Virus record (IMG/VR): IMGVR_UViG_3300043436_000696
From: an uncultured virus (IMG/VR IMGVR_UViG_3300043436_000696)
Lineage: Duplodnaviria > Heunggongvirae > Uroviricota > Caudoviricetes
DNA length: 64,000 nucleotides
Strand: one strand, 5' to 3'
Notes under the pieces: generated by a model
Seen by the model: the letters and a program-made list of their open reading frames with translations, nothing else
Databases searched by the model: none
Told to the model about the DNA's origin: nothing
Shown: positions 27,387 through 59,800 of the stretch, piece after piece
Numbering within the stretch: the stretch's first letter is position 1
Layout: each line of letters starts with the position of its first letter
Program-made: the position numbers and the translations under genes

Positions 27387-28061
27387 ATGTCAAAGAACAC
27401 AGTAGGAGATGTTATCTCAAGAATTCGTAGTCAAGTAAAAGCGGTGAGGCAAGACTCTATGCTTACTGACCGTCTTATATATAGTTTTATACTTAAGCAT
27501 TCTAAATGGTTAATGAAACGTGAAGACAGTAAGAACAAACTTATGTCTTTTTCTGGAGTTATGCAAACCATGGATTATGTTGAACTTATAGAGGTAGATA
27601 AGGTACAAGCTAGATGTACAGGTCTCAGTACTGATTGTACTATTAAAAGAACTAAAAGAAAATTACCTGTATTTTTACAAGGATACTATGGTCCTCTTGT
27701 ACGTACTGTAGCTTCTTTAGATGGCTCTGAAGAGTTACAACCTATTCTTCCTACAACTTATTTAGCTTTAAGTAAGAGTAAGAACTTTAAATATAACAAA
27801 ACTAAATACTATTGGTTTCTAGATGACTATATGTATTTTCCTAATCTTGATTGGGATGGTGTACGTATAGAAGGTATTTTTGAAGATGATATTAGTTTAT
27901 ACACTTGTGCTGATGATTCTTGTGTTACAAGAACAGATTTACAGTTTAATGTACCTGACTATCTTCATGGAGAAATGGAAGCATCAGTATTAAAAGATCT
28001 TATTTCTATGTACCAATTACCATCAGACACTTCTGCTGATAAACAAAATCCTTTAAGATAA
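27387..28061 (+). CDS. Tail ring/adaptor protein (crAss-like)
   Basis: N-terminal helical pair, ELIEVD...C...C..KRT..KLP, YWFLDDYMY, GIFED pattern; position between IHF-like and muzzle genes. Confidence 0.6.
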   Translation: MSKNTVGDVISRIRSQVKAVRQDSMLTDRLIYSFILKHSKWLMKREDSKNKLMSFSGVMQTMDYVELIEVDKVQARCTGLSTDCTIKRTKRKLPVFLQGYYGPLVRTVASLDGSEELQPILPTTYLALSKSKNFKYNKTKYYWFLDDYMYFPNLDWDGVRIEGIFEDDISLYTCADDSCVTRTDLQFNVPDYLHGEMEASVLKDLISMYQLPSDTSADKQNPLR

Positions 28062-28309: not shown

Positions 28310-29191
28310 ATGAATACAGAATTAAAATATAGAACCTTTGATGAACTCTTAGATGAGGTATCTGTAGACTTTAAAGTTTACAGTAATGAAGGTATGATTG
28401 AACCTGGAGAACTTATTAAGGTTGCTCAAAGAGTTACCTATGATCTTGGTTTACGTATCCATAAAACAAAGGAAGTTATTTTAGATGTTGAAAAAAGAAG
28501 AGCTAAACTACCTGATGATTTTTATGTGGTAAATTATGCAATGTTAATTGGTAGATACAAAATTAGTACTCCGGCCATTCAAGGTGACCAAAGAGAGTCT
28601 ATATGTGTAGCATCAGTATGTAGAAAATGTCATGGTAATTCTAATGAATGTGGTTGTGATGATCTTTATTCTGTAGCTGTAGATGTACATGGTGATGACT
28701 CAGGAAGTTTAGTACTAGTACAAAAGATTAAGTCAGAAACTAGAGTGTATGATCATTTTGAAAGAATTCATTTAGGTGGTGGTAAGTATTTACAAAATGA
28801 TGAGTTACATGGTGATAGACCATGTCCTAATAATGGAGAAATAAAAAATGGATATATTTATACTAACTTACAAGAGGGTAAAATATATCTTTCTTATGAA
28901 GGAGCATTAGAAGATGATGAAGGTAATTTACTTGTATTAGATCATCCTATGATTAACGAGTATTACGAGTATGCATTAAAACAACGTATTCTAGAAAATT
29001 TATTTATGTCAGGTGAGGAGGTTTCTCAAAAGATGCAACTAATTGAAACTAGATTAAGAGCTGCTAGAAACTATGCACTTACTATTGTTAATACTCCAAA
29101 CTTCTCAGAGATGAAGAAGTTATGGGAAATGAATCGTAGAGCTCAGTATAATAAATACTATGATATGTTTAAGTCTGGACAACAATTCTAG
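28310..29191 (+). CDS. Tail tubular/ring protein (Ttub-like)
   Basis: LPDDF and NGYIYTNLQEGKIYLSYEGALEDDEGNLLVLDHP motifs typical of crAss-like ring proteins; Cys-rich insertion. Confidence 0.7.
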   Translation: MNTELKYRTFDELLDEVSVDFKVYSNEGMIEPGELIKVAQRVTYDLGLRIHKTKEVILDVEKRRAKLPDDFYVVNYAMLIGRYKISTPAIQGDQRESICVASVCRKCHGNSNECGCDDLYSVAVDVHGDDSGSLVLVQKIKSETRVYDHFERIHLGGGKYLQNDELHGDRPCPNNGEIKNGYIYTNLQEGKIYLSYEGALEDDEGNLLVLDHPMINEYYEYALKQRILENLFMSGEEVSQKMQLIETRLRAARNYALTIVNTPNFSEMKKLWEMNRRAQYNKYYDMFKSGQQF

Positions 29192-29196
29192 CTTTT

Positions 29197-29559
29197 ATGA
29201 AAATAACTACCACTATAAAAATACCTACATATAGTTGTGAACTTGTTGTTGTAATTGTAGATAGTGTAGCTGAAGAAGCTGAAAAGCTTTATAAGAAATA
29301 TAAGTTAAAAGAAGACTTTGGAGATGAAGCTGAAGGAGCTGTTATTATGTTAGATATAGATAAATATTATCTTTTGTTAGGTAACAAGTTTTTATCTCAT
29401 AATACAATAGCTCATGAAATATACCACGCTGTAGTAAGAGTCACTGAAGATAGAGGAATAGTAGAAGAAGAAGCTCAAGCTTGGTTAGCCGGTCATGTGA
29501 CTGGTGTTATTTATAAATTTTTACATAAGAAGAATCTTGTTATAACTCATGGCAGATAA
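29197..29559 (+). CDS. Small HExxH zincin-like protein
   Basis: NTIAHEIYHAV...EEEAQAWLAG. Confidence 0.7.
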   Translation: MKITTTIKIPTYSCELVVVIVDSVAEEAEKLYKKYKLKEDFGDEAEGAVIMLDIDKYYLLLGNKFLSHNTIAHEIYHAVVRVTEDRGIVEEEAQAWLAGHVTGVIYKFLHKKNLVITHGR

Positions 29560-32500: not shown

Positions 32501-34573
32501 AAAATGGATGTTCCAGTAACATCTACAGTATCTGCTTTTTATGGATCACTTAAGGTGGCTATACCATCTCAGTATGGTCAACTTGAAAACATTAAACAGT
32601 TACCTGTTTCTACATGTATTGGTGCAGTAGTTGCAGGAACCAAGGCTAAATATAAAACAGATGTTTTGTTTGGTGGAGATGTTTATATTAATAGATTTAC
32701 AGAAAAGAATCCTTTCTTTTTCTTTAACTCTTGGTTAATGGGTGAACCAGATGAAACTGAAATTGATTATAGAAACTATGGTAATATAGCTTATCCAAGA
32801 TTTTGGGTAGACAGTGCTAGAACTACATTTAGATTATTTAATGCTGCTAGTAATAATAGACACCTTGATGAAAGAGAGAGTGACTTGTTTTATGTAAAGA
32901 AAGGATACTTCTATTTATTCTTTAATGGTGTAAAAGACTTTTTCTGTGAATCTGAAGTTAACACTGCTAATAGAGACTGGGAAGATTTACCTAACAAACG
33001 TCACTATGATCCTCATAGATTCACAGATTATAAAGCATTATTTAGAGCTGACTTTATTAAGGATGGTAACTATTACAAGTATGATTATTCTTTAAGTGTA
33101 TCTAAACTATACTCTAACTATATTTCTTGGGGTACTTTATTACCTAGAGATTATGATCCTAAGGTAGCTGAAACTTGTTATACATATAGACCTAATAGAG
33201 TAATCTATTCTTTACCTCAGGAATCAGAACTTAAGAAAGATAACTGGAGAATATTTTTAGCTAATAACTATAAATCATTCCAATCTAAAGTTACTGCTAT
33301 TAAACCTATAAATAAAACAGGGGCATTGTTCATGATGAACTATATGAGTCCTATGCAATTTGTAGGAGTTGATACAGTGCAGACAGATATAGGTACGAAA
33401 CTTACCGTAGGTGATGGAGGATTATTTAATCAAGCACTTCAGAACTTAGTTAATACAGATGACTCTTATGAGTATGGATCTAACCAAAGTAAGTTTTCAT
33501 CAGTGTCTACACCTTATGGTGTAACCTGGGTATCTCAAAATCAAGGTAAGGTATTTAACTATTCAGGTAGTTTAGAAGAGATTTCTAAAAATGGTATGAA
33601 ATGGTGGTTTGCTAAATACTTACCTTCTGAATTACTTAAGACATATCCTAACTATCCTTTGCATGATAATCCTGTAAAAGGTGTAGGGGTTCAAGTAATT
33701 TATGATAATACTAATGAGATTATTTATATTACTAAGAAGGACTTTAAAGCTAAGCGTAGTAATTACGTATATGATAATAAAGGACGCTTCTATATATCAT
33801 CTAATAATGTAAAGACTGAAATACAGTTAACAGATAAAGAATACTTTGAAGATGCTAGCTGGACTATATCTTATGATCCTAAGGCTAAGAGTTGGTTAAG
33901 TTTCCATGACTGGGAACCTACGTTTATGTTACCAGGCAAGGCTCACTTTATGTCTGTTAATAAGAATACTATTTGGAAGCATAATATTAGAACAGATGAG
34001 TTTTGTAACTTCTATAATATAGACTATCCATTTGAAGTGGAGTTTGTTTCAGCAACAGGTCAGCAAGTTAATAGTCTTAAGAGTATAGAGTATTTGCTTG
34101 AAGCTTATAAATATTCTAATGATGGTAAAGATAAATTTCATATCTTAGATGAGAATTTTGATCAGGCTATTATTTATAACTCAGAACAAATTTCTGGTCT
34201 TCTTCAATTAGAAGTTAAACCTAAAGGTAATCCATTCTTAGCTTTAAGTTATCCTATAGTTAACAATGACTATATTAAGATCTTATTTGCTAAAGAAGAA
34301 AATAAATATAGATTTAATCAGTTTTTTGATATCACAAGAAACCGTGGAGAATTTGATGTACCAGGTACAATACATCCTCCTATGTTTGATACTAAAGCTA
34401 ATGGTTATGAATTTAGTATTAATCCGGCTTACGTAAATTACAAGAAGTCTGTAACTGAACGTAAAAAGTTTAGACATAATGTAAATAGAGTATTCTTAAA
34501 GAAACATGTAAGTAATGATGTCAAGTTATTATTTAAGATTTCTAATCAAAAAATACAAAGTTCTCCAAGATAA
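29549..34573 (+). CDS. Tail stabilization / muzzle protein (Tstab, P22 gp10-like)
   Basis: 1674 aa; NTFSKGMVKD start, IYWDDGINPSR, YMRDEQYAFFI, FGGDVYINRF, WTISYDPKAKSWLSFHDW motifs; follows ring genes. Confidence 0.8.
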   Translation: MADNTQQNPGAVTNTFSKGMVKDYNETFVGEGLWTHARNAVNNSHDGQVGVLGNEPANMLCAQLPYTLIGSIHLNDDQWAIFTTDDVNSEIGIFDESECSYKKVVNDPGLNFNRANLITGAYRKRYDCERLIYWDDGINPSRVMDIDNPPYMFVPQRAGDVISRHYKLVAGACGDGTGVTVVSYKDTTGALKVVRVPANQTYQFATWDKTSVSVKQEACKPLPCYNTTVTQQLLDGRKSEYRTCMSAKEAKEIQFPNGKLDTTIKVVQKTDTTCDCSFYDDNDLTIYSLKDITDQFLTDVGSNCILKKYTDQLDTERLRLVPFLTHPCLSLQKGKVAGTLPNGSYQVVMAYTINQNKICDYIGFSDVQSLFSHENLNGSLELTISNIDTDFDEFELVILSTVNGQTTAKKLGIYYTTQKTIYIDQIQPDAISIPISQIPLRSEPIERTDAMYTVNNYLLRVGTYSKFQFNYQLQANKIKTSWVAVKYPEDYYRKGGNNTTYMRDEQYAFFIRWIYNTGERTASFHIPGRVADPKDLETAIGQDAFETRDGVSRLNWQVKNTASVTGLSNTPLGDGGIVIAKGLMGYWESTEIYPADKPELWGPLCGAQIRHHKFPDVTVHPALNHVVDNGSNIVILGVQFENITHPVDNYGNDIPEVVGYEILRGSREGQKSIVAKGMFSNMREYNVPGNSSIKGLYQNYPYNDLRADSLLTSDRNIFEKGSADINLGYPLTGYKKDHFSFHSPDTTFSRPFLGFNEAKIETEIYGTAEGVFSVPYKHPKFKLLTNFSSSLASIVGTIASLGNYLGAIANDSNISLQGTNDLPYTKKLTLQKITNHSLTFGGGGSFLGTGGSATVSVPNPVIVAYNTAIGIYNAAVAIAMTYIEAQTTGEQLYRIMYALVPRRQFALQYDSHAYFNNFKEVYTGNRRRKIENAVYVSPDIQGFDAKYQINNLYRSNYVAVKLGQEISDPTTQDTSRFRIGEKGGKMDVPVTSTVSAFYGSLKVAIPSQYGQLENIKQLPVSTCIGAVVAGTKAKYKTDVLFGGDVYINRFTEKNPFFFFNSWLMGEPDETEIDYRNYGNIAYPRFWVDSARTTFRLFNAASNNRHLDERESDLFYVKKGYFYLFFNGVKDFFCESEVNTANRDWEDLPNKRHYDPHRFTDYKALFRADFIKDGNYYKYDYSLSVSKLYSNYISWGTLLPRDYDPKVAETCYTYRPNRVIYSLPQESELKKDNWRIFLANNYKSFQSKVTAIKPINKTGALFMMNYMSPMQFVGVDTVQTDIGTKLTVGDGGLFNQALQNLVNTDDSYEYGSNQSKFSSVSTPYGVTWVSQNQGKVFNYSGSLEEISKNGMKWWFAKYLPSELLKTYPNYPLHDNPVKGVGVQVIYDNTNEIIYITKKDFKAKRSNYVYDNKGRFYISSNNVKTEIQLTDKEYFEDASWTISYDPKAKSWLSFHDWEPTFMLPGKAHFMSVNKNTIWKHNIRTDEFCNFYNIDYPFEVEFVSATGQQVNSLKSIEYLLEAYKYSNDGKDKFHILDENFDQAIIYNSEQISGLLQLEVKPKGNPFLALSYPIVNNDYIKILFAKEENKYRFNQFFDITRNRGEFDVPGTIHPPMFDTKANGYEFSINPAYVNYKKSVTERKKFRHNVNRVFLKKHVSNDVKLLFKISNQKIQSSPR

Positions 34574-37500
34574 TGAATAAGTTATTACAATATATGATGG
34601 ATGCTAGGAATTTGGATCATAGGATTCTTCCTGGATTACAGAAAATGCAGAAAGGTGGAAAATTTAAAATGCCTGTTGCTACATTGACAACTAATCCTGA
34701 GCAGTCATCTAATCTTAGTATTAGTACAAATGTAAAATCTGGTACATATCGTCCTACATCTAAAGTTATAACACAAGCTGAAATAAAAAAACAAGAAGAA
34801 ACTGCTAGGTTAAAAGAAGAGCAAGATAGAAAAGAAGCATTAGCAGCTGCAGTTAAGAGAGGTAGAGAGAATCAATCTTATTTCTCACAAGATAATAGAA
34901 CAGCTGGAGAAATAGAAAATGATAGGTTAAGAGCTATAGATGCTCAAATGGAACAAGCTAGAAGTAATTCACCATTTGCTCAAACATTAGGTTCATTTAC
35001 ATCATCTGGATATAATCCTGCAGCTGGTAGAATTGCTGCTGAAAATATAGGAAATATGACTCCTATGATGGGAGCTACAAGATTAGCTAGTACTATAAAA
35101 GATCCTAAAAATAATCCATATGGTATTGGTAGAGATAAAGGGTGGTTTGATAATACACTTGGTACATTAGGATTAGTTGGAGATGCTTTAGATGTAGGAG
35201 TAGTTACAGCTCCTATTCTTAAACAGAGTGGTAGAGCAATAGGCAAAGCTTATAATAAAGTAGCTACAGGTGAATCTGCTTTACCTGTTGCTTGGAAAAG
35301 TCCAGCAGTTGGTCTTAGTCAAGAAGCTAGTGACGCAATGTTTAAAGGAATAGCTAATACAACTAAGTTAACGGATGCTGATAGAGCTTTATTATTAGAA
35401 TATCAGTATGATAGTAAACCATTTACAGGAAGATGGGGTACAGTTGATCAATCTAAAAAAGATGCATTAAATAATCTTATTAAGAATAATAATTTAAATT
35501 TTACTAATGATGCTATTCTTACAAGAAAGTTTAATCCTACTAATAAATCATTAGGTGCAGAATTTGTAGATGGCACATTAAATTTAGGAGATCGTCCTAG
35601 TTCATTTTCAGCTGGTGTTGGAATGCCTGGTTATGGTAGCGGTGCTGTAGATAGAATAGTTGTACCTAATAGATATAGTAAACAAATGGGTAATAGTCTT
35701 TTAGCAAATGAGTATAATAAAGTATCAGATGGTACTTTTGATTTACTTAGTGGAGACGTTAAAAACTTTGCTGCTGCTAGAGGAATAGCACTTGATGATT
35801 TACTTAATGCAGAAAGAGAAGTTATAGGAACAGGATTAAATTTTAAAAGAATTGGTAAAGTGAAAAATGATATAGGTGGCTATGATCATGTTGTAAGACC
35901 TAAGTTTCAAGGAGGCGGTGGTTTTAATGCTAGACCTACTCTTAAACAAATTATGCAGATGCCTGATAAAAGGTATACACCTGCCCCTGGAGTTATGAAT
36001 ACTAAAGCAGGTTTAGCGGCTGCTAGTATGATGAGTGGTCCTTTTTCATTTATACCTGGTACAGCATCTGCTGTATACGATCTTGGTACTTCAGCTCGTT
36101 ATGCAATGGATGGTCAATGGGATAATGCAAAAGAAGATTTAATATCTGCAGGTTTAAATGCAATTCCTACTGCTGGTGTATATGCTGCTTTAGCAGGTAT
36201 GGGAAAACTACAAAAAGCTGCAAGAGCTAGAGCTGCTATAAGAAGTGCAAAAGGTGCTATGAATGCAAAAGACATTGCAGGATCAAGTACTATTAGAAAC
36301 AATATTACAGGTCTTGTCCAAGAGTTTGATAAAACTGGTAAGGAAATTAGTTCTATGAGACCTAGATCAGCAGCTGAGGTTAAAGCTTATAATCAAAATT
36401 TAAAGAGTCAATATAGAACGGGAGCTACTCCTGAAGGACCTGCTGAGCTTATGCCTTTTAGATCTCCTGATTTTGCAGGTGGCGGAATGATTGTAGATCC
36501 CCGTGGTCAGTGGGCACATCCTGGTAAAGTTACTCGTATACCTGGTTCAGATATTACTATGAAAGGAGTACCATATCCTGTATTAGGAATAGGTAACAAT
36601 GGTAAAAAAGAAGTTATGTATCCTGGTAAAGATTACAACTTTGGTGGTGCATCTTATGTAGATGAATATCCTATAATGCAGGATGGTGGTAAGTATTTTT
36701 TTATGAACATTTATGATGATTTTAATAAGAGACTTAAAAATACAGACTATGTAAAAGATGAGTATAATAAGGGTATGGATTTTCATACCAAATGGCTTAA
36801 CTCACCTATGTATAATAATATGATTAATGCCTCTGCTGGTAGTGATGCAAAAAATATTACTGACCAACGTAAAAAACGTCTTTCTGCTGTGACTATGAAA
36901 TTCGTTGATGACCCGTATAATAAAGCTGGAGCTTCTGCTGATAAATTAGGAAATATAGAAGTATACCCAGAAGGGATTGGTGCTAAAGGTATAGGTGTTC
37001 ATGAGATGTCTCATGTAACAGATACAGGTCCAGGTCAAAATCTTATACCTAGTAAAGATAGGATTGATATATCAAGATATAGTGTTGCTTCAGAAAATTT
37101 GCCAAAATATGAAGCTAATAACGAGTATTTTAATTATGTTACCAGACCTTCAGAAACAAGAGCTAGATTAAATGAAATACGTCAAGGAGCTTCTGAAAAT
37201 AAATTATATGATCCTTTTACTCAGAAAGTAAATCCAGCTATATATAATAAACTTAAAAACTTTAAGTTTAATAGTACACCTGGTAGTGATCCTCTTCAAC
37301 AATTAAAATCTGCTTATAGTGATGAACAGATTTTACAAATGCTTAATAGTGTTTCTAAAGTAAATACTAATAATAGTAGTGATATGCAAAATATGATGAA
37401 AAATGGTGGTTACGTAGTAACTAGAAGTAATGACCGTAAAGGAAAGACTCATAAAGTGACAGGTCCTGATGGAACTGTTAAATACTTTGGTGACTCTAAA

Positions 37501-38358
37501 CTAGGACAGCATCCTAAAGATCCTGAACGTAAGAAAGCGTTTTATGCTCGTCATAAAAAGAACTTAGATAATAATCCTTACTTTAGAGCATTTGCTAGAA
37601 AGACTTGGGAAGAGGGTGGTCAAACTGATGATGATAGAGAAATGCTAAGTGGTGTAGCTGATATACTTCGTAGAATTAATGATACTAGAAATCGTAAAGA
37701 AGTTGCAGATTATATGATGGATAATTTCCGTGAAGAAGATGTATCATTTGAACCTAATGCTTTTTTAAAGTCAGCTAATGTATTTGCTAAAGGTGGTGAG
37801 ATGATACGTAGAGCTGATGGATCATATTCTCGTAGAGGATTGTGGGATAATATTAGAGCTAATAAAGGATCTGGTAAAAAGCCTACTAAACAAATGTTAG
37901 AGCAAGAGCGTAAGATTAGATCAAAACAAGAGGGTGGAGAAGAAGTTCAGATGCCTCAAAGTTTAGAAGAGCTAATGAATCCTACTAGAAGAGGTATGGC
38001 AAATCTTGGATTTGGTTTTAATAATGAAAAGTTTGGTACTAACTATAACTACTCAGGATCAGATAATTTTAGAAATGGTACACATTCTCTAAACGTTGGT
38101 CTTCCTGCTTTTTTAAAGACTGGTAATCTTGATATATCTGGAACGTATTCTCCTGGTAGAGCTTATAGTGCTAACATAATGGGAACAGCTCCAGCTAACT
38201 TTATAAAGAAAGGCACTATGATGAACTTTAGTGGGGGGTTTGAAAAAGATATTAATCCAATGATGAAAAATGTAGCTCCTTCATATAATGTAGCAGCTGG
38301 TTTTAGAATTCCTACAAAAGTTGGTAACTTTACAGTTAACGCTTCCTATAGAAAATAA
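34573..38358 (+). CDS. Mosaic virion cargo protein: GG-delimited modules including ART-like and zincin-like domains
   Basis: 1261 aa; eight phi-x-x-GG motifs; R...SSFS...EREV segment; HEMSH; basic small modules; first gene after the muzzle. Confidence 0.6.
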   Translation: MNKLLQYMMDARNLDHRILPGLQKMQKGGKFKMPVATLTTNPEQSSNLSISTNVKSGTYRPTSKVITQAEIKKQEETARLKEEQDRKEALAAAVKRGRENQSYFSQDNRTAGEIENDRLRAIDAQMEQARSNSPFAQTLGSFTSSGYNPAAGRIAAENIGNMTPMMGATRLASTIKDPKNNPYGIGRDKGWFDNTLGTLGLVGDALDVGVVTAPILKQSGRAIGKAYNKVATGESALPVAWKSPAVGLSQEASDAMFKGIANTTKLTDADRALLLEYQYDSKPFTGRWGTVDQSKKDALNNLIKNNNLNFTNDAILTRKFNPTNKSLGAEFVDGTLNLGDRPSSFSAGVGMPGYGSGAVDRIVVPNRYSKQMGNSLLANEYNKVSDGTFDLLSGDVKNFAAARGIALDDLLNAEREVIGTGLNFKRIGKVKNDIGGYDHVVRPKFQGGGGFNARPTLKQIMQMPDKRYTPAPGVMNTKAGLAAASMMSGPFSFIPGTASAVYDLGTSARYAMDGQWDNAKEDLISAGLNAIPTAGVYAALAGMGKLQKAARARAAIRSAKGAMNAKDIAGSSTIRNNITGLVQEFDKTGKEISSMRPRSAAEVKAYNQNLKSQYRTGATPEGPAELMPFRSPDFAGGGMIVDPRGQWAHPGKVTRIPGSDITMKGVPYPVLGIGNNGKKEVMYPGKDYNFGGASYVDEYPIMQDGGKYFFMNIYDDFNKRLKNTDYVKDEYNKGMDFHTKWLNSPMYNNMINASAGSDAKNITDQRKKRLSAVTMKFVDDPYNKAGASADKLGNIEVYPEGIGAKGIGVHEMSHVTDTGPGQNLIPSKDRIDISRYSVASENLPKYEANNEYFNYVTRPSETRARLNEIRQGASENKLYDPFTQKVNPAIYNKLKNFKFNSTPGSDPLQQLKSAYSDEQILQMLNSVSKVNTNNSSDMQNMMKNGGYVVTRSNDRKGKTHKVTGPDGTVKYFGDSKLGQHPKDPERKKAFYARHKKNLDNNPYFRAFARKTWEEGGQTDDDREMLSGVADILRRINDTRNRKEVADYMMDNFREEDVSFEPNAFLKSANVFAKGGEMIRRADGSYSRRGLWDNIRANKGSGKKPTKQMLEQERKIRSKQEGGEEVQMPQSLEELMNPTRRGMANLGFGFNNEKFGTNYNYSGSDNFRNGTHSLNVGLPAFLKTGNLDISGTYSPGRAYSANIMGTAPANFIKKGTMMNFSGGFEKDINPMMKNVAPSYNVAAGFRIPTKVGNFTVNASYRK

Positions 38359-38378
38359 CACTTATAAAAAATAAATAT

Positions 38379-39146
38379 ATGTACTCTTTTTACGATTTAA
38401 TGGCTAACGGTGGTATACATAATGCTGGATTCCAAGCATTGCCTGATTATGTGCAAAATAAAATATTAGCTAATATGGCTAATGGCGGCACTGCTTCTAA
38501 AAAAATGTATAAACAAAGTAATTTTTCTGGAAACGCTTGGTATCAAGATGGAGGAGAAGAAGGAGCTAGTCAAGAAGAACAGATCATGCAAATTATTGAA
38601 ATGTATGCTCAGTTAACTGAAACAGAACCTGATGCTATTCTAGAAGAGTTGCAAGGTATGAGTGAAGAAGAACAACAGCAGGCTTTGCAGTCTATGGTTG
38701 AACAGATTCAATCTGCTCAAGAACAGCAGCAGGGTGATGCTCAAGAAGAGGAAATGGAAGATGTTGAGGATGATGCTGAAACAGAATATAGAAGAGGTGG
38801 TCAACCTTGTTATGGTTGTGGTGGTGCAATGAAGTATCAAACTGGTGGCTATATTCCTGAGTATGGAGAAATGGCTTATGGTGGTATTCACATTAACCCA
38901 GCTAACAAAGGTAAGTTTACAGCATCTGCTCAAAGAGCAGGAATGGGAGTACAAGAATTTGCATCTCACGTATTAGCTAATAAAGAAGATTATTCTTCTA
39001 CTCAAGTAAAAAGAGCTAACTTTGCACGTAACGCTGCAGGTTGGAGTAAAGCAATGGGTGGTCCAGTAGTAGGCCAAGAGATGGAAGTTACTCCTAGAGA
39101 GTTAGAAAACTTACGTAAACAAGGTTATCAATTTGAAATATTATAA
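38379..39146 (+). CDS. GG-motif-rich small cargo/core protein
   Basis: 255 aa; about eight xxxGG motifs, acidic Glu/Gln tract, IHINPANKGKFT...KRANFARNA module. Confidence 0.6.
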   Translation: MYSFYDLMANGGIHNAGFQALPDYVQNKILANMANGGTASKKMYKQSNFSGNAWYQDGGEEGASQEEQIMQIIEMYAQLTETEPDAILEELQGMSEEEQQQALQSMVEQIQSAQEQQQGDAQEEEMEDVEDDAETEYRRGGQPCYGCGGAMKYQTGGYIPEYGEMAYGGIHINPANKGKFTASAQRAGMGVQEFASHVLANKEDYSSTQVKRANFARNAAGWSKAMGGPVVGQEMEVTPRELENLRKQGYQFEIL

Positions 39147-39149
39147 TAA

Positions 39150-42100
39150 ATGAAAATACGTATTACTGGAAAATCTTTACCTAAGGCTGAAACTGGAAAA
39201 CAAGTTGGAGATCCAGATGACGCATGGATTCGTAAGATCCTTGAATATGAAGCACGGAAAGGATCTGCTACAGGTGGTGGTTTGTCTAACTTTGGGTATA
39301 ATGATTGGCAAAAGCTAGGTCATAGCCGTCCTCCTCGTTCATTAGATGAAGCTGTAGAATATTATAAAAAAGACTTTCTTCCTAAAGTACAGAAGTATCC
39401 TATGGGTCTTCGTGAACGTATGGGGGACTATATATTTAATACGGGTAGAAATCCTAATGACTTACTTCTTTATAACGCAGGTAAGATTACACTAGATCAG
39501 TTAAATAGTCCAAATACATTTACAAATGAGTGGAATCAATTTGGTCCTGAGATTGAAAAGCAGTATAGTAATCCTGACTTTATTAATAGTTTAGATACTA
39601 ATAAACAAAATGTTTATAAAACTACAGGAACTTATTTTGACCCATCAGATCCCACAAAAAAAGTTCGTTATTCTTTAAGTAATCCTAATCCTACTTTTAC
39701 AGCTAGTTGGGAAGGACGTACAAATATGTGGGGTAAGTATCAAGCACCAACGCAACAAGCTGCTTCTAAACAAGTTAATCCTGGTAGTAAAACTACTTAT
39801 ACACTTAACGGTAGAACATTAGATATTAATAATCCAGCTGACGCTGCTATTATTAAACAAAAAGAAGATGAATTAGCTAGTGACCAAGCTGCTATTAATA
39901 ATTACTATGCTCAAAAATCAAACAGTAGTAAAGGTGCAAACCAAACAGGTCAACCATTACAACTAGCTAATACACTGACTAAGTTGCCTGATCAACAACT
40001 TATGATGAGCACTGTTAAGTTGCCCTCTAATACAACTATGCCTAATATAGGTATACCTAATTTACAACCAGGTTTAAATCAGTTAAAACAAACTGGTAAT
40101 AAAGTTATCAATAAGATTGGTCAGTTTGGTAATAATGCAAGTTCTTTTTTTGCTAATACTGCAAATTCATTTTTTAAAAATTTACAGAACCAACCACAAT
40201 CTAGTAAGCCTGCTTCAGCAGTTCAACAAACGCCACAAATTAGTGGACCTAATTTAGGTAACCAGCCTACTTTTACTCCAACAAGTAATCAAAGTAATCC
40301 TTATACATGGATGCCAAGTGGTCAAGGTTTGGCTTCTCAACCTATACAAAATAGTGCAATAAATCAACAACCTCCTTCAGTTGACTTAACTGGATTTGTA
40401 CCTCCAGTTGTTGCTAACTATACGGAAGAGCCTATAGTTGCTCCTATAGATCCTCAAGAAGAAGCTGCTAAAAAAGCTAAAGCAGCGTTTAATGCTAAGT
40501 ATCCTAACGCTCCAGTTAATCAAACAACCTGGCAGGGATTAGATGATATGGTTGCTCAAAGAGCTGATCCATTTGGATATGAGATGGATCAGAGAATTAA
40601 AAATGATCCTAGATATGCTAGAAGACTTAAAAGAAGTCTTAATGGAAAAATAGATACTTATAAAACAATTGGTGCAGCAAGTGGAGCATTAACAGGAGCT
40701 ATTACAACTGCTGCAGCTCTTACTGATTTTATAGATAATAAAAATAAACAGAAAGAGTTTAATGCTTATATGAGAGATCAGCAAATGTCTGATAACTTAT
40801 ATCCTATAAGACAAGGTAGTCGTGGAGACTATGTTCAATCAGGTACATCTTATGGAGCATTTAGACCAGATCAAATGACAGTTAATAGAGGTATGTTTGC
40901 TGAAATGGGCGGACAGTTAAATACACAAAATATGAAAATACGTATAATATCAGGACCATCTAGAATGGAATATGGTGGTCAAGCTAAAAATGGCTATGGT
41001 TTAGATTTAGGAAGCGGTCATATTTATGATCAAATGAATGAAGATCCTAGAGCAAGTATATCTAATACTATGTCTGAAATTGAAAATCCTAATGAGCCTT
41101 ATGTTTTAGAGACAGAAGGTGGTGAAGAAGTATTACGTCCTGATGGAACTAAGTTTAGACTAGTAGGTAATAGTCATGCTAATGGTGGTATTAAGAATAC
41201 TGCTTCTCAAGTTCCTAATGGATCTTTTATATATTCTAAAAAGCTTAAAGAAACTGATCCTGAAATTCTAGCTAAATTTGGTAAAACCTATAAGCGTGGT
41301 GGTGTATCTTATTCAGATATATCTAAGCAGTATGATTTAAATAAGTTTAAGTCTATATTAGATAATCCTAATGTTGATCCATTAGCTAAAGCTACTGCTC
41401 AAATGATGACTGATAACTATAAAAAGAAACTTGGTCAACTAGCTTTAGCTCAAGAAGCTAAGAAAGGTTTTAAAGATGGAATACCTCAAGCTTATACAAA
41501 CTCAGTTGCACAAGCTGCATACGGTGGTTATATTCCTCAGTATCAAACTCAAGGAGAAGTAAAAAAGGATGATGTTATTTATACTCCAGAGTTTCAAAAG
41601 ATCTTAGCTGGTTTAAAGAATGATCAGAAGTATAACATGATATACTCTCCACGTATTTTAGCTGGTGATAATATGGTTCCTTTAATGCAAAACAGACAGG
41701 AAGCTACAGGTTTATATGGAGATATTACACCTAATGAAATAGAAGAGTTTAAAAAACGTCATGAATGGTATTTTAAAAATAAGTCTAAATGGAATCCAGC
41801 TAGTAAAAAGGATGTTAAAGATTTCCAAAAGAAATATGAAGAGGAATTTGCTAAAGAAAAAGGTTATTCTTATTTTACAGAGAAAAGGAAGTTTGATGAA
41901 ATAGATTCAAAATTAGGTGAATATACTTATAATGCTCCTGCTCTTAATAAAGGAGATGATGAAATTGTTGTAGAAAAACCTAAATATAAATGTCAGGTTG
42001 ATGCCTCTGGAAAAACAATTGCTGTAACAAGTACTGATGGTACTGGCTATAATACAGAAGCAGAGGCTTTAGCTAACTGTCCTACTAAAGAAGAAGTTAA

Positions 42101-50824: not shown

Positions 50825-53800
50825 ATGGCTTGTAGATTATCAGATGAACAGGTTGAAGCGTTATACTCAACAGTACTTGGAGATATTGTTTCAACTAAGA
50901 ATAGAGGTGATATATATGATCCTAGCACTGCTATGCGTACATTGTACCAAAGCTTAATGGCAGCTGGTGCTGATCAAACTAATGCTCTTGATTATATCCA
51001 ACATGTACCTAGAATGATTAATGCTGCCTATGGTAGCTTAGAAGAAATTGCTGATTATTTACAAGATAGTAATGTAAGTATTGATAATCTTAACAAGATG
51101 AGAAGAGACTTTAAAGACATTAATAATGTCATGTCTTTTCTTAATTTAAATAATAATACTGTAGAGATTATAGAAGAAATTGTAGAAGAGAGTAATCCTT
51201 CTACTCCTGTAGTTCCTACAGATGTATACACTGAGATTGAAAACTCAGATGTTGAAGAGAAACAAAAGTTATATAAGAATCGTTCTTTTATAGCTGCTCC
51301 TGAAACAGCATTAGCTGTATTTAATCAAGAGGCTAAAGATTACGATGGATCTATTGCTGAGGATAATGTTCAAGATCCTGATCCTAAGAAGAAAACTTAC
51401 TATGCTGTAGTTAGAAAGATCAATGCTTTAATGAACTCATTAAATGCTAGTACTGCTAACAATCTTAAGATGGGTACTACAACTGGTATCTTTATGAACT
51501 TAGTAAAAGCATCATCTATTGATGAGGCTGACTTATATGTTTCAGACACAAAATTTATTAACCAGAGTGAAGAAAACAGAGCATATCATAATGATTCTGC
51601 TTTGGCACTCGTATATACAGATAAAAATGGTAAAGTATTATATTTTGATGAAGAAGGTAATATCACAAGTAAAGAAGCTGGCGGTAAACTTGTTTACGGT
51701 AAAATAAGAAATGTTTACTCTGATAAAACTGGAGCTAAATATGTACCTAGAGTACAGACTGTAGAGAGAAAGGCTGAGAAAGGAATGGGAACTCAAGAAG
51801 AGTTACAAGCTGAAAGACAAAAAGAAATTGATGTTTTAGAAGGTGCTCGTAAGTTTCTTAAAGAAAATCCTACAGGATCTTTAATGTTTTCTATTACTCC
51901 TGGTAGAAATGGATATGTTAATGAGGACTTTAGTACAGTTAATCTTATTGGATCTATAGAATTACCTGATGGATTTAAGCCTACAGTGGCTAAAGAAGAT
52001 ACTGGTATTTACAAGTCAGGTGGTGTATACTTTCATGTTCCTGGGTACAGTCTTCCTATCCTTGTTCGTAGACCTAAGTTTGGTCAATTGAATAATAACT
52101 TAGCTCAGAATTTAGCTGATTTATTATTTGATAGTGCTAATACACAATCTAATGCTGAAAAGATTGCTATAGTAAAACAGTTTACTTATAGTAATGATAC
52201 TAAAGTATTTGACCGTGATGGTAAAATATTTGTAAAGCAAGGTGAGCAAGAGTTGGACACTACAGATAGTAGTAACCGTGAGACTTTCTTACAGAATTTA
52301 AATGGGCAGGTAGTAAACATTAACAAGGATTTAGTTAATGGTTATGTAGATATGCCTGTTAACTTAGACGGTAAAGTACAGATTCAAAAAGAGATATACA
52401 ATAACTTTTTAACTGGAAACTTCTATACTCATCTAGCTAAAAATGCAGAGGGTAAAGTTGTAAGTATGAATGCTTATAACAACATCTTTCCTACAGTGGA
52501 GTCTCAGACTAAGATGTTTGGAGAAACTAAAACTACTAAGACAGTTCTTGCTGATGAACTTACTCCTATTGAACAAAACTTTTCAGATGGTCAAGGTGGA
52601 CGTAAGATGCAATCTAAGTTTGCAGGTAAATCTACTATGGATTTAATTCTTTCTGGAGATAGAACTAGAACTACACGTGCTAATACTGACATACAAAGAA
52701 TGATGAAAGACTATGGTCTTACTAAAATTGAAGACTTAGTTGGTAAGGTTATTCGTATGACAGATAAAAAAGGTAGAACTGCTTATACTGAAATTACAAA
52801 AGTTGTTCCTTTTACAAAAGAATATCAAGATTCTACTTGGCAAAAAGAAGGATGGGAAAAAGGAGTAACAGATAAATTAGTAGGACAATATCCTTACGCT
52901 ATAGAATTTAAAATAGTTAGTTTAGAAAAACAATATACAGCTCCTGTAAGTTTAACAGAAACTACTCCTACAGATAATAAGATTAGTCCTTTAGCTGAAT
53001 TGCTAAAGAATACTGACTTCTCTTTAAAGAAATCTATATTAGAGAATAGTGATGCTACAGAAGAGCAGATTGCTAAAGCTAGAGCTTGGTATACAGGTAG
53101 TCCATTAGCTAAGGTTGTTCCTTTTGAAACCATGTTCCATGTTGTGAACTCTAATGCATTAGCTACATTTACTTTATCTGGTATTACTTTATTTCAAGGA
53201 TCTAACTATACTGACCTATACCACGAGGGATGGCATGCTTTTTCTCAATTGTTCTTAACTAAAGGTGAAAAGGTTGCTTTATATAATGAAGCTAGAAAAC
53301 TTACAGGATCATTTAAAACTGCAGATGGTAGAACTATAAAGTTTAGTGCGGCTAGTGATATTCAATTAGAAGAGTTTTTAGCAGAAGATTTTCGTAAGTA
53401 CGGTTTAGCTGATGGTAACTATATAGTTGCTGGCAGAGGAACTCGTAATACGTTGTTTAGACGTATGTGGAATTTCTTAAAGGCTGTATTTAAAGGATAC
53501 AGTATTAAAGATGCTATTAGTGAAGCTACAGCTATTCCTAAGATAGCAGAGTTATACGATAAGCTTTATGTAGGAAACATTAATGACTATAGTGCTTCTT
53601 TAAACAATGTACAGTTTAAGATATTAAACAAAGGTGCTCAACCTTTAGATGATAAGAACATTGATGGTGGATTAAACTATCAAGACTCAATGACTCTTGT
53701 AGAGACAATTGACTCTTTAATGGCTTCTACTTTACAAGACTATGGAGTTAACCTTGGGGTGCTATTTACTAACCCAGAATTTACAGCTCCATTATATGCT

Positions 53801-56800
53801 GAGATTAAGAGTAAGATAGAAAAGATGGCAGCTAATCCAGATCTTTCTGAAAGCTCTAAAAGAATATTAAACTTTGCTTTAAGTGAGTGGGGTGACTATA
53901 CAGCTGTTAGCAAAGGAGAACAGGAGTTAGGTGTGATAGCTTTTCATAAGAAGAGATCTTCTTACTTAACCTTTGATGAAAAGTATGCAGATTTAACTGG
54001 TGCTGAACAAGACATTAATGAAAATGCAGCAGATGCAATTAAGGATGAAGAGGATCAATTAACTTTAACTGCTAATGAAGCTCGTGAAAGTTTTGGGTCT
54101 AATGCATTTGAACGTAAAGGTAATGAGTTATCAGTTAGAGAGTTAGCTAGTAACCAAACTGTATATTTAATTAAGAGCTTACCAGCTTTAGATAAGAATG
54201 GTAAGGTTGAAATGAATGCTTTAGGTGTTCCTAAATTGACTGACTTTAATAGAACTTGGGGTATTGTAATTAATACTGTACAAGGAGCTATTGATGAAGT
54301 AGATATGTATAGAAAGCTTTCTGAAGCTTCTACTAGATTCCCTGAATTAAAGGCTTTAGTTGAACGTTTAGGTGATCCTATGGAAAAGACTCAAACTTCA
54401 GATTGGCCTGCTATGAATATGTGGATTAATTTCCACCGTGACTTTAGTGTATACCGTGTGCCAATTAGAGAAGTACGTTTAGTTAAAACTCAAATTCCTG
54501 GTGAAGATGGGTATACTTTTAGTGTAGAGTTTACTGAAACTAGCCCTACGTTTAAACAAGTTGAGAATACATTTAAGTCTCAATTTGATGCTATAAGAAA
54601 TAACAAGTATGTAAGAAATACTCCTCAAGGTAATGAGTTAAATATAGAATCTATACTTAATGATTTTCCTAAGAGCACTCTTATGAGTGGTACATCTAAA
54701 CTTAACTCTGAGCAAGCTATTAAATTTTTAAGAGCTATCGGTTTGTATGTAACTGACAATCAAGCTATTAGAGAAAGTTTAAATGACAACTATACAGCAG
54801 TTACTTATTTACATTCTGCTTTATCTAGAATTAACTATTTTAATTCTTCTAAAGAGCCGGCAAGTAAAATTAAGATTAGTAGTCCAATTGACTTCTTGCG
54901 TAATGAATTAAAGAATGTAACTACTAAAGATAGTAAGGGTAACACTACACTTTTACATAAAGGAGAGTCATCTAATATTGAAAAGATTCTTAATATAGAA
55001 GGTACTAGCTCGGGTAAGTATAGTAATAACTCTGTAGAGAATGTTAATGGTGATTCTGTTTTTGATTTATCATTAAATAATACTATTACAAAACTGTTTG
55101 CAGAATTAAATGCTATTGGTAAAACATATGCTGATGTAATTAACAAGCCTCATATGGCTCACTTAAACTTCAGAAATAATCCAGCTGCTAAATATAGTAT
55201 TTGGTTAAATAGCTTGTTCCATATTCCTACAGGAAACTTTGATACAGCTAATATGAATCAAAGAAGAGTGGGTAAGACTAATGCTGAAACAGTTAGTATT
55301 GATATAGTCAACTTAGATGGTATTAAGGAAGTAGTTAGTAATGAAGCTCAAGCTCAGTTTAGAGTTAATGGTATCAAAACTACATCTGCTGACCCAGCTA
55401 CTAAGTTTGTAATGGATTTACATACCATGTTAATGAGAGGTGTGATTGAAGCACCTAGACATGCTTCTAAATCTACAGCATATGGTTACTCTGTATCTCT
55501 TCTTTCTACACCATTCAATGCTAAGTCTCGTCATTTATATATCAGTAGTGAATACTTTGCAGATGATGCTACAGCAAACAATGCTGCAGTAACTCTTCTT
55601 AAGCCAAAGATTGCTGCAGAGATGGAACGTATTGCTATGCTTAAGGCAGGCATGCTTCCTAACATTCCTGGTTTTAACGAGAGAGGATTGACATTTACAA
55701 TGTTTGATGATATTCTTTCTGATAGTTTAAAGAAAGACTTAATAGAGATGGCTAATGCTGATAACTCATTAGATCTTTTAGAAGATGCTGAATTATCAAA
55801 AAGAATCTCTAATGATATCTCTAGTTATATAAATAAGCTAACTCAAGAGAACCTTGATATATTTGGTGAAATGCCTTTTATATCTAAAGAGTTATTAAGA
55901 GGTGGTGCTAGAGGTTCTGCTAAAAGTATTACTAGTTTAATTGGACAGGGGTCTAATTTAACTGATGCTCAGCTTAAAGTGATTGCACTTAAATCATTCA
56001 CTGTCAACTCTTTAATCCATAATATGGAAAGTATGGCTATGGTCTATGGTGACTTAGCTATGTACAATCATAATAAAGAAGAGTTCCATAAGCGTAATGC
56101 TGCTATAGGATCTACTGGTAGAATCTTTGCTTCTGGTCAAGCTACTACTAACTTTGTTAATAATCTTGGAAGAGGTTATGCTAGAAAGATAGGAGCTACT
56201 CAAAGAACTTTTGATGGTACTATTAACTCAGTAGTATTTAAAGATAATAATGTTACATCGGTTTATTACGATGAATATCTTGATGCTCTTACTTCTAAAG
56301 GATATACTAAAGAGCAAGCGGCATCTATATTAAAACCTTACTCAGAAATGAATGAGGGAGATGCTCAAGGATGGGTAACTTTTGATGCCTATCGTATGTT
56401 CTCTATTTTAGAGGGGGCATGGTCTGAAAAACAAAATGATCTTTACAATAAGATTATTAATGAAGAAGTGGTTGACCCTGCAGAAATTAGTGAGTTCTTC
56501 CCAACTAAAAAGTTTCAGTATGCTGGTCCTGTTAAGAGTGATAAGTTACACTTACAGGCTTTCCATAAGTTTTCATTAGTTCCGTTAATCCCTAGTTTAA
56601 TTAAAGGGACTAATATGGAAGTAGTACATGATAACTTGGTTAAGCAACAAGTTGATTATGCTGTATTTGAATCTGGAAGTAAACTAGCTACTATTACTAA
56701 AAATGGTCAGTATGATGATCTTTATAGTAATAAAGAAGAGAGAACTACACAACCTTGGAATCAAGGTGATCCTGAGTATACTACTAACAAAGTGTTTATT

Positions 56801-59800
56801 CAGTATCTAAAAGATCAAGTGGATATTCAATCTACTTGGAAGAATAAAACTATATTCTCTACTCAGCTTAGAAAGTTGATTATCAATGACTTGTTCAAAC
56901 AAGGTATTGCTACATCTAAAGATTTTGAAAAATTAGTAACTGACTTTGAAGGATTACTAGATGATCTTCAGACTAAAAAGAAGAATGAGTTACTAGCAGA
57001 AGCCGGTTGGACACAAGACAAGAAAGGAAACTACACAGGTAGTGTAAAAAGCTTAATGGAGTTTGTTGAAAGAGAACTTGCTCGTCAAGAACTCCCTGAG
57101 CATGATATTGATTTTGTAAGAGAAAGCTCTGATATTAATAGTATTAAGAGAGACTTAAGCTTTAGTCTTAATGCTGAGAAGATTGAAAAGTTGTTAAACT
57201 CTATCGTTATTAAACGATTGGTTCGTCAGAAGATGAACGGAGAACAGTTAGTACAAGTTTCTGGAGCTGGCTTTGAGTCTACTACTAAGTTAACTAATCC
57301 TACAGAAGAAGACATTAAGAACTATCGTGGTACTAATGACTTACCTACTTATCGTCCTGGTAAAGGAAAGAATGGTAAGACTAGTGCAATGAAAGTTAAG
57401 ATTGCTATGAAAGGTGACTACTATAAGTTACTTGAACTTAAGCATACTGATGGAGAGAAGATTGGTACAAGAGAGCGTTTAAATGAAGTGCTTAAGAAAG
57501 ATGAGTGGTTAGATCAAAAAGATAACCGTAAGCTTATCACTATGGTAGGTGTACGTATTCCTGTACAAGGCTTGAACTCTATGGAGTTTATGGAAGTATA
57601 TGAATTCCTTCCTGAAGAAGCAGGGTCTATTGTTATACCTCCAGCTGAAATCGTGGCTAAATCTGGATCTGACTTTGACATTGACAAGTTAACTATATTC
57701 CAACCTAACTATTCTAAGAAGAGTAAAGAAGCTAAGTATAGTATAAATGATAATGTTAAGGGTACAGAAAACAAGATTATTGAAAAGATTCGTGAGATCT
57801 TAGAGCACCCTGATAACTTTGAAGCTCTTATCCGTCCAAACAATACTGATATTGTTAAAGGTGTAGCAGATGATTTAGCTAGCAAAGATATTCAAGGATA
57901 CAGTCCTTTAGCTAATAAGACTAAAGAAAAAGCATCTAAGATTAGTCCTACTCGTACTTTAGAACCTAGATACAATCTATATAAGCATGAGTCTAATAAC
58001 ATTGGTAAAAAGACTTTAGGTATTGGTGCCGTAGATAATGCTTACTCATCTATCTTTAAAAGAATAGGTGCTAGATTAGAAACACAGTATACTCACTATC
58101 CAATTGATTTTGCAACTGGTGAATATAAGAAAGATCCTAAAACAGGTAAGATTGTTAAGCAAATTCGTCCTATTAATATTAGAATGAAGCATAATTCAAT
58201 CACTGTAGATGGTAAACAATATATTTCTTTATCTGATATTAACACTGTAAGTGGTGAAAAGATCTCTGATTTAATCTCTCAGTTGATGAACGGATGGGTG
58301 GATATTGAGAAAGACGCTTGGATCTTTAATATTAATGGTAATAATGTGGCAGGTCCTGTATTATTGTTTATGCTTGAATCAGGTGTAGACTTTAAAACAG
58401 CAGCTCATTTTGTATCTCAGCCTTTAATTGTTGACTATATTAAAAAGAGAGCAGCATCTAATAGTCCTTTCTTTGAAGCAAGTGGTAAAGGTGAAAATAA
58501 AGGAAAAGGTCTTAATAAGTTTGAGATTAAAAAACAATTTATACTAGATAACTTTGAAGATGACTTACCTATTAATAAAAGTACAGGTGAACCTATTGTA
58601 AGTAATGATGGTATATATAAGATTATTAATAAATATAATGAAGGAGTAGAGTACACTAGTGATAACTTATTAGGAATGATTGAAAAGAAGGATACTACTT
58701 CTGATATGGCTAAAGCAGCTCTTCTTCATTTCTTTGAGTTAGAAGACCTGATGGGTCAATTAACTAATATTAAATTAAAGGTTAATTTAGATACTGCACC
58801 TTCTAAATCTTTATTTTCAGCTCAACAGAGAATAAATGAAATTGGTAAGTTAAATATTGTAGATGCTGTACCAGCTAATTTAGTTAAAAATATATTGTAT
58901 AACTCTCCTATTAAATCATTCTTTGTACAAGATTTCCAATTAAAACTTTGGGAACCATTGATGAAGCTTAGAGGAGATGCTAATATAAACAACTTCTTAA
59001 TAGATAAGATTGCTACTAAGTCATATACAAATTCCTTTGATGATGCTGAAAAGTATGTGGCGGCATTTAAAAATGACCTTCCTTTATATCTTTTACAGAA
59101 TTACCTAAAGGGAATTGATATTTCTAAAATTACAGAGTACAAAGGCTTGCTTATAGATAAAGCTATGCCTGTGCAGAATGTACAAATTAGAAATGGGGCT
59201 TATGTAAAAGACGGGGTAATGTATGTAGATATAGACCAAATAAAGTCTGACTTTGCAAGCATGGCCTATACAGATAAAGGAACTTATAAAGAAATAGGTC
59301 TTTCTACTCTTCCTGCTCAAGTATTTAAAATGGGTGAAGTAAATGCTAACTTTCAAGAGTACTCTCACTATGTATTAGAGCGTGAGTATTTAAGATCAAT
59401 TCTTCCAGTAAGACAAAATGAAAGTAGAGAAAGTTATGAAGATAGACTTAGGGATAGAGCTTTAGAAAGAACTTTTAACTTCCATAGCATGCTTAAATCT
59501 GACAATAGTATTGCAGATGAGTTCAATAGAATTAAAGCTAAATACCCAGAGTTAGAAAAAGACTACATGATCTTTGATGAATTAGGTTATACTCCAGGTA
59601 GCAAGTTTGATGTAAATAAACTTAAGACACTTAAGTTAAAATCAAGTAAGCTTGACACTGATATGGCTAATGTTCTTCATGAAAACCTTCAGAGACTTGC
59701 TGACCCAGCAACTATTAAAGTAGCTAATCCTGTGGCTAACGCTGAAATTTCTAAGTTCTTTAGTAGAATGATTATATCAGAATACTTAAGAGCTGGTATT

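Follow-up and report, generated by a model that had tools for sequence, protein, structure and literature searches.

Conserved Gly-Gly seam peptides at module borders in the cargo proteins of a crAss-like phage

The DNA analyzed here, a stretch of 64,000 nucleotides (nt) from the uncultured virus IMGVR_UViG_3300043436_000696 (the window), comes from a crAss-like phage, identified by its Pfam CrAss_Ring_1 and CrAss_Ring_2 matches together with its gene order. Three consecutive genes encode the proteins P0001, P0002 and P0003. These proteins are built as chains of modules that are unrelated to one another and can be exchanged, set apart by a short peptide motif ending in Gly-Gly, which we call the seam. 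The motif was enriched, it was positioned at the module junctions, modules had been exchanged and permuted at the seams, and two modules had folds recognizable from models, in the case of the zincin-like module only suggestively. The explanation that we prefer, with a probability of about one half, is that the seam would be a selected joint, which we infer to be left uncut, serving both as a hinge and as an exchange point. The three genes are the following:

34573..38358, + strand: P0001, cargo/polyvalent protein, 1261 amino acids (aa)
38379..39146, + strand: P0002, seam-rich protein, 255 aa
39150..43070, + strand: P0003, 1306 aa, with a conserved head MKIRITGK-LPKAxxG and fewer seams

The seam motifs of P0001 end at residues 29, 450, 638, 706, 946, 1016, 1075 and 1122. 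The first-pass annotation had listed eight motifs in P0001, seven in P0002 and three in P0003, and all these coordinates were exact on rechecking. Enrichment was tested in 33 open reading frames (ORFs) of the window against 500 composition-preserving shuffles per protein. The pattern [FYWM]xxGG was found eight times in P0001 (1.42 expected) and seven times in P0002 (0.49 expected), and none of the 500 shuffles reached the observed number in either protein, so that the frequency is not merely compositional there. P0003 was not significantly enriched in this test, which the first-pass annotation had suggested (2 motifs, 1.13 expected, p-value 0.33). Among the other 30 ORFs only that at 8139-9176 gave a p-value below 0.05 (4 motifs, 1.29 expected, p-value 0.03), probably because of its composition; the Gly-rich tail-fibre proteins of the window showed no enrichment in the same test. 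Three giant proteins encoded downstream of P0003 contained 0, 1 and 1 motifs (0.44, 1.16 and 0.24 expected, respectively).

Among P0001 and the 119 homologues listed, 960 motifs were counted against 170 expected; at least four were present in 110 of the 120 proteins, and a single protein held up to 21 copies. The gene preceding P0001 served as the synteny anchor and is called muzzle since it is placed after the ring genes, as in the phage crAss001:

29549..34573, + strand: tail muzzle-type protein, 1674 aa, matching PHROG virion structural protein families

With the muzzle protein as query, 57 related loci were found; the later counts cover 50, 45 or 40 related loci. The ORFs starting within 6 kb 3' of the muzzle gene in 50 loci included 626 motifs (123 expected), while the genes upstream included 78 (67 expected). 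The logo of 1296 unique contexts has M, Y, W or F at P5, Q, A, K or E at P4 and N, D or E at P3, followed by the two glycines, the bulky residue peaking at P5 (M 6.6x, Y 3.5x, W 5x). After Gly-Gly, E, Y, Q, M and T were favoured and K, R, V, D and N depleted (667 strict contexts). The spacing of the seams had its 10th percentile at 8 aa and its 25th at 13 aa.

BLASTP comparison of P0001 with the 119 homologues produced 317 high-scoring segment pairs (HSPs) with 589 internal borders. With a distance limit of 3, 5 or 10 residues, 40, 50.9 and 62% of the borders, respectively, fell near one of the eight sites, compared with 4, 7.0 and 13% for random sites, and none of 2000 random site sets matched the observed proximity. 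The three Gly-Gly pairs of P0001 outside the motif drew few borders, the exception being the pair at residue 436, which is located just before the seam at 447-450. Identity to the homologues was high over small parts of the protein (e.g. 96% over 56% and 95% over 6%), and the order of the modules was permuted among them. The modules are:

34573..34659, + strand: M1, 29-aa N-terminal leader ending LQKMQKGG, with a short helix at residues 3-11 predicted at low confidence
35293..35907, + strand: predicted ADP-ribosyltransferase (ART)-fold domain, residues ~241-445 of M2 (30-450), predicted local distance difference test (pLDDT) 77-94
35923..36486, + strand: M3, Gly/Ala-rich and partly hydrophobic helical, residues 451-638, low-confidence helices
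36487..36690, + strand: M4, small beta module with IVDPRGQW, 68 aa, residues 639-706, pLDDT 85-95
36691..37410, + strand: M5, zincin-like metallopeptidase module, residues 707-946, with HEMSH at residue 810 (nt 37000)
37411..37938, + strand: M6, M7 and M8, of 70, 59 and 47 aa, each ending x-x-x-Gly-Gly; M6 and M8 basic
37939..38355, + strand: M9, C-terminal beta-rich tail, residues 1123-1261, low-confidence model

The closest syntenic relative (L002/L008), the muzzle protein of which is 92% identical to that of the window, has a first cargo gene of 834 aa. Its product consists of another leader (ending SQGGG), M3, M4, M8, a P0002-like stretch, M6, the rest of P0002 and a YQFEIL end; it is without M1, M2 and the zincin M5, M8 precedes M6, P0002 is fused on, and Gly-Gly is present at every module border. 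When P0003 was compared with its orthologue, three of the four borders were within a few residues of Gly-Gly. The proposal that the motifs stand at module borders is thus borne out by the BLASTP borders, the syntenic relative and two AlphaFold models alike, and orthologue comparison, suggested earlier for finding gain or loss of modules exactly at Gly-Gly, revealed losses, gains and changes of order at the joints of the closest relative. Also the idea of a swappable payload of unrelated modules is supported by the permutation and exchange at the seams and by the cargo position of the genes in a crAss-like phage.

The AlphaFold models covered residues 620-1261 (model 1; 50-row alignment, mean pLDDT 58.5) and residues 1-640 (model 2; mean pLDDT 51.7). 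Model 1 included confident blocks in M4 (pLDDT 85-95), M5 (56-83) and M6 (66-87), and across M6-M8 values of 50-87 fell below 50 at each joint. Four of its six seams were placed in segments with pLDDT below 50 between confident blocks and two at block edges, and a helix ended 1-6 residues upstream of four seams. The Gly-Gly pairs at 436 and 692, which are not part of a motif, sit inside confident domains. Whether each Gly-Gly lies in a linker between domains had been raised in the first-pass annotation; in the models the seams were between domains or at their edges and none was buried.

The R-S-E type of ART has a triad of Arg, Ser-x-Ser and Glu-x-Glu. The only confident domain of model 2, at residues ~241-445, closes just before FQGGGG, and all its matches listed in a Foldseek search of PDB were C3-like or binary-toxin ARTs (E-values 3e-4 to 1e-2). 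Of the 30-31 aligned rows holding the module, 28-30 retain R318, S344-x-S346 and E414-x-E416, and the predicted domain qualifies as an R-S-E type ART fold with an R/SxS/ExE triad. For M5 the top VIA-align rows were five M13 zincins (Z 6.8-7.3, model residues 93-210), below the level of a firm match, and M5 had no Pfam match; the HEMSH motif together with these rows is suggestive of a zincin-like fold. At the fold level the earlier label "ART-like" therefore holds, in view of the Foldseek rows, and "zincin" probably holds, in view of the M13 rows; "basic modules" fits the sequence, while the parts called "hydrophobic helical" and "beta-rich tail" have low-confidence models.

The distribution of the modules among the 119 homologues was uneven. 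M4 was the most widespread (105 homologues, often N-terminal), followed by M6 (residues 947-1016), M8 and M7 (93, 76 and 62, respectively), the leader M1 (29), M3 (25) and M9 (16). The sequence following M1 can be unrelated, and in many of the 50 loci the gene next to the muzzle gene on its 3' side opens with M1. The most hydrophobic 19-mer of M3 starts at residue 523 (Kyte-Doolittle 1.41). M9 belongs to a small set of recurrent C-terminal modules, and its NASYRK ending was shared by 11 of the 120 proteins. Compared with phage records at E ≤ 1, M4 matched only seven Cellulophaga phage records (E 0.5), and M6 showed a weak likeness to DUF5754 (E 0.085). Nothing significant was found with Pfam and PHROGs for P0001-P0003 or single modules (Pfam threshold E ≤ 0.01, with weak rows at E ≤ 1); homologues carry PF18760, PF03496, PF01510, PF03734, PF19197 and PF19058. 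Searches of the PDB sequences with phmmer (P0001, P0002, part of P0003 and a 120-aa protein described below) gave chance-level rows or none, and a Foldseek search of PDB with model 1 gave no row at E ≤ 0.001.

P0002-type sequence is fused to P0001-type proteins elsewhere (81 HSPs in 43 homologues, 28 of which end YQFEIL-like). P0002 opens with MYSFYDL-MANGG, the counterpart of KIKAKN-MANGG inside the fused forms, so the seam has been kept at the new N-terminus. The leaders form a few families, such as MNKLLQHI...LPGLQKMQKGG, MTYNKTLLNSI...SQGGG, MAKWLDKYEQGG and MYSFYD...GG; they are conserved, 12-44 aa long, and carry the motif at their end. In many leaders KMQKGG is replaced by a second motif with a single Gly, LPKAQxG, the local form of which is SLPKAETG at residues 9-16 of P0003 (39174-39197). 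Of 189 distinct N-termini, 47 had a motif ending in their first 30 aa, and 45 of 182 distinct C-termini had one ending in their last 30 aa, where 14.6% would be expected at either end; this indicates that both chain ends carry short seam-delimited pieces. Retention at the N-terminus only had been expected, and the asymmetry was weaker than that.

At the gene borders of the cargo block in 40 related loci, the upstream protein ends ...GYQFEIL, GYNFEIID or GGDVEF(L/I/C), and the next protein begins MKIRITGK-LPKAQxG or MK-YKVRIK...MAYGG. The border between P0002 and P0003 (39060-39200) has such matched conserved end-pieces separated by a gap of 3 nt. A complex prediction on whether these end-pieces clasp (P0002 196-255 with P0003 1-60) scored 0.24, the mark being 0.34. 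Residues 137-169 of P0002 (38787-38885) form a dense run, YRRGG-QPCYGCGG-AMKYQTGG-YIPEYGEMAYGG, holding a conserved Cys pair (PCYECGG in relatives), perhaps a small metal-binding knuckle flanked by seams.

According to the preferred explanation, the products of the three genes would be ejected as cargo and would be polyvalent proteins in kind. Each chain would open with a short conserved leader, continue with a varying succession of modules that fold on their own, and close with an end-piece drawn from a small C-terminal set. In the window the modules would include an R-S-E type ADP-ribosyltransferase and a zincin-like peptidase besides a Gly/Ala-rich hydrophobic segment, a small beta module and small basic modules. 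The modules would be joined by the peptide [M/Y/F/W]-[Q/A/K/E]-[N/D/E]-G-G-[E/Y/Q/M/T], in which the bulky residue would close the upstream module, often in the last turn of a helix, and Gly-Gly would terminate that structure. Such a flexible seam could let the modules fold and unfold separately during storage and when threaded through the tail, and it would be the only place where a module can be exchanged in frame.

Comparison was made with crAss001, in which the gp44 muzzle gene is followed by the cargo genes gp45 and gp46 and the RNA-polymerase proteins gp47-gp50, an order matched by the window (Bayfield 2023, PMC10172136, as far as its accessible text goes). From this synteny P0001-P0003 are probably packaged and ejected. 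The cargo protein C1, gp45, is a single protein of 842 aa with joints FSAYGG 209, FAEGGG 263, KAFGG 332, NAFGG 427 and FAYGG 562. It includes [FYWM]xxGG three times (1.4 expected), and no enzyme module was seen in it by eye. Both gp45 and the window proteins are encoded after the muzzle gene and have a Gly/Ala-rich hydrophobic segment. One Gly-Gly-bounded module is shared between P0002 (168-228) and gp45 (374-428) with 43% identity (E 1e-5); beyond it, BLASTP of M4 and P0003 found no other sequence similarity to gp45. A counterpart of the portal-binding domain of gp45 in M4 or P0003 is unsupported, as gp45 425-561 gave no alignment with M4 and gp45 gave chance-level rows with P0003. PF25725 was seen among the homologues only in P0107.

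The pieces of gp45 reported as resolved are a helix in the tail barrel (214-245) and a portal-bound domain in the capsid (425-552) (Bayfield 2023, PMC10172136, in the accessible text). The second range begins A-F-G-G-W (F426-G427-G428-W429), according to which the chain would be continuous across that joint, and the tail-barrel helix starts four residues after joint 209. In the accessible text of the same paper the strings "cleav", "proteoly" and "protease" do not appear, and no joint motif is described.

A comparable protein was found outside these genomes. In gp040 of the Cellulophaga phage phi4:1 (L072 8914-11601) four seam motifs are present (0.7 expected), and its N-terminus includes an M4-like piece (39% identity, E 0.5). 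The protein is a virion protein of a cultured phage confirmed by mass spectrometry (MS), and the record does not place the phage in Crassvirales; phi4:1 is a possible laboratory model.

Several observations weigh against an uncut joint, and a passive hinge leaves a number of them unexplained. The motif persists behind the N-terminal leaders as well as at the very start of split genes (MYYQQGG..., MYSFYDLMANGG), the position following Gly-Gly is itself constrained (E 3.2x, Y 3.0x), Gly-Gly is near-invariant at the M6 joints in the alignment, and HExxH is frequent, being present in 51 of the 120 family proteins. The continuity of gp45 covers one joint and follows the residue range given by the authors, and the gp45 peptides from MS that are mentioned in the accessible text (79-101, 181-190, 275-300 and 307-320; PMC10172136) span no joint. 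Furthermore, the protease search given below covered the genomes of relatives and, of the phage's own genome, these 64 kb.

The rival that survives best, possible with the odds clearly against it, is that a phage-borne or host protease processes the chains as polyproteins, at all seams or at part of them. The cut would be placed either behind Gly-Gly or, in line with the preference of a zincin, ahead of the bulky residue, and leaders and effector, DNA-binding and membrane modules would be freed. Gly-Gly processing is known from the adenovirus protease, from pS273R of African swine fever virus and from double-glycine bacteriocin leaders cut by C39 peptidases. The seams resemble such sites in having a hydrophobic residue before Gly-Gly, and adenovirus also has basic DNA-associated core proteins. 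However, while adenain-type sites have the hydrophobic residue at P4, the bulky residue of the seams is at P5 and P4 is Q, A, K or E, and the seams are far denser; a spacing of 8-13 aa would yield tiny peptides. The leaders ending in the motif recall removed leader or targeting peptides and the constraint reaches the residue after Gly-Gly, but Pro is not depleted there (32 of 667 contexts, 0.83x background), and Gly-Gly formed the C-terminal end of none of the 120 family proteins and of none of the 182 distinct C-termini. Iyer et al. (2017, PMC5512222), in the part of the text available, predict processing of this kind in polyvalent proteins. The two resolved pieces of gp45 lie between seams, as separate fragments would, even though the authors' range runs through F426-G427-G428-W429 (PMC10172136, accessible text).

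The protease that such cutting would need was not recognized in the relatives. Pfam scans of two relatives, one 78% complete (52 ORFs) and the other 99% complete (82 ORFs), which did find portal, capsid and replication genes, revealed no protease except a weak CHAP domain in a lysis-like protein, and PHROGs added none among 20 ORFs of the latter. Peptidase_S78 was absent from all five complete relatives searched and Peptidase_C39 (PF03412) from the one relative searched, and neither a prohead protease nor C5-, C39-, C48- or C63-like genes were found in relatives. A Ulp/C48/C39-like maturation protease, the search for which the first-pass annotation had recommended, was thus not met with in these genomes. 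The common zincin-like modules could supply the activity, but HExxH modules were found in the seam-rich cargo gene in 12 of 40 loci, leaving 28 without, including the closest relative; being present in few loci, they look like optional payload. Another candidate precedes the muzzle gene:

29197-29559, + strand: 120-aa HExxH protein between R1 and the muzzle gene, phrog_1365, no Pfam family

Its invariant motif HNT(I/L)AHE(I/V)(F/Y)HA...DEE(A/S)QAWL makes it look like a mini-zincin, and the nearest named Atlas cluster was Peptidase_M78 at 0.88, which is a lead only. The gene was present at this position in 28 of 45 loci, but it was absent near the muzzle gene in the remaining 17 and from gp34-gp43 of crAss001. 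Five complete genomes without the gene at the locus were searched, of which four had no detectable copy anywhere and one had a weak match (E 0.016).

A related reading, which we consider doubtful, is that the seams are regulated cut sites, with a virion-borne zincin trimming the leaders and severing a subset of seams in assembly or after ejection; M5-type modules or, in this subclade, the 120-aa protein would be the candidates. If this were true, a single gene would yield separately delivered products, namely an ADP-ribosyltransferase and a peptidase along with membrane pieces and DNA-binding modules, and the presence of gp45 in both tail and capsid would be explained without 12 chains threading the portal.

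It is unlikely that the seam is a docking or packing handle, binding a repeated site in the procapsid, the portal, the tail barrel or DNA so that the handles load and order the chain and their number sets the avidity. A handle would account for the motif at gene N-termini, where a linker is needless, and for the conservation beyond Gly-Gly, and both particle-bound pieces of gp45 begin at most five residues from a seam (PMC10172136, accessible text). Against it, up to 21 copies in a protein exceed the needs of a tag, and according to the models the upstream module finishes with the bulky residue, which forms no free peptide. The giants encoded at the position of the packaged RNA polymerase of crAss001 have 0, 1 and 1 motifs, which argues against a general loading tag. 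Neither the maturation-protease site nor the capsid-loading tag put forward in the first-pass annotation thus received support from anything computed here. A recombination signal in the DNA or an artefact of Gly-rich composition is highly improbable, since GGTGGT encodes 20 of the 34 Gly-Gly pairs (~12 expected from codon use) but the flanking codons vary by site, so that at most 6 nt are shared and the signal is at the protein level, and since composition-keeping shuffles never reached the observed counts and the Gly-rich tail-fibre proteins are unenriched.

All long ORFs of the window are on the + strand. The ring genes on which the identification of the phage is based are located upstream of the 120-aa gene:

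27387-28061, + strand: tail ring protein R2, Pfam CrAss_Ring_2, E 4.5e-23
28310-29191, + strand: tail ring protein R1, Pfam CrAss_Ring_1, E 3.6e-12

P0003 is followed by two genes (457 and 622 aa) and then by the giants, of 1479, 3250 and >1140 aa. A cargo gene directly 3' of the muzzle gene was present also in the 40 related loci listed. The relatives are uncultured IMG/VR contigs of ~125-131 kb, and neither megablast nor tblastn of the region and P0001 against 50,697 phage records (INPHARED) gave a match at E 1e-5. Among the giants, those at 50825-60577 and 60581-64000 have one HExxH each (residue 800, YHEGWHAF, and residue 174, LHEFSHPL, respectively), and the 3250-aa giant has a weak DUF7831 match at its end. 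The tail-fibre proteins at 344-3400 and 3400-7101 (+ strand) have a C-terminal Peptidase_S74 intramolecular chaperone domain, with which a fibre cuts itself; this was the sole curated peptidase-family match in the window. The tandem genes at 7103-8137 and 8139-9176 (+ strand) encode Gly-rich paralogues of 344 and 345 aa (phrog_1417).

Short conserved leaders are also known from the internal proteins of phage T4, in which an N-terminal capsid-targeting sequence is removed by the prohead protease. The likeness lies in the short leader of proteins that are packaged into the head and then injected; in T4 each protein has a single leader, the cleavage motif is a different one and the protease is known, whereas the motif here is repeated internally. 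Polyvalent proteins share with P0001 the joining of disparate domains, such as ART and zincin-like peptidase, in one phage polypeptide, predicted injection and mosaicism (Iyer et al. 2017, PMC5512222, available text). P0001 unites several disparate activities as predicted from its models (an ART fold, an HExxH module and others), and the swappable payload falls within this known theme. Polyvalent proteins as described in that text differ from those studied here, in which nearly all joints bear a single short peptide and conservation extends to the leaders and end-pieces; the words "linker", "glycine" and "crAss" have no occurrence in its available part. No published description of the seam motif was found in literature searches, and a single conserved seam peptide at nearly every joint, with leaders and end-pieces, appears to be new.

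Crassviruses rank with the most abundant of the known phages, and their ejection proteins are called unresolved in the available text of a 2026 paper (PMC13434306). A single joint peptide offers a simple rule by which large unannotated proteins can be parsed into modules and injected effectors catalogued, and the seams are defined sites at which cutting, docking and mere hinging of the cargo can be told apart. Should any module be tolerated at the seams, these would also be natural insertion points for the study of cargo delivery in laboratory phage-host pairs.

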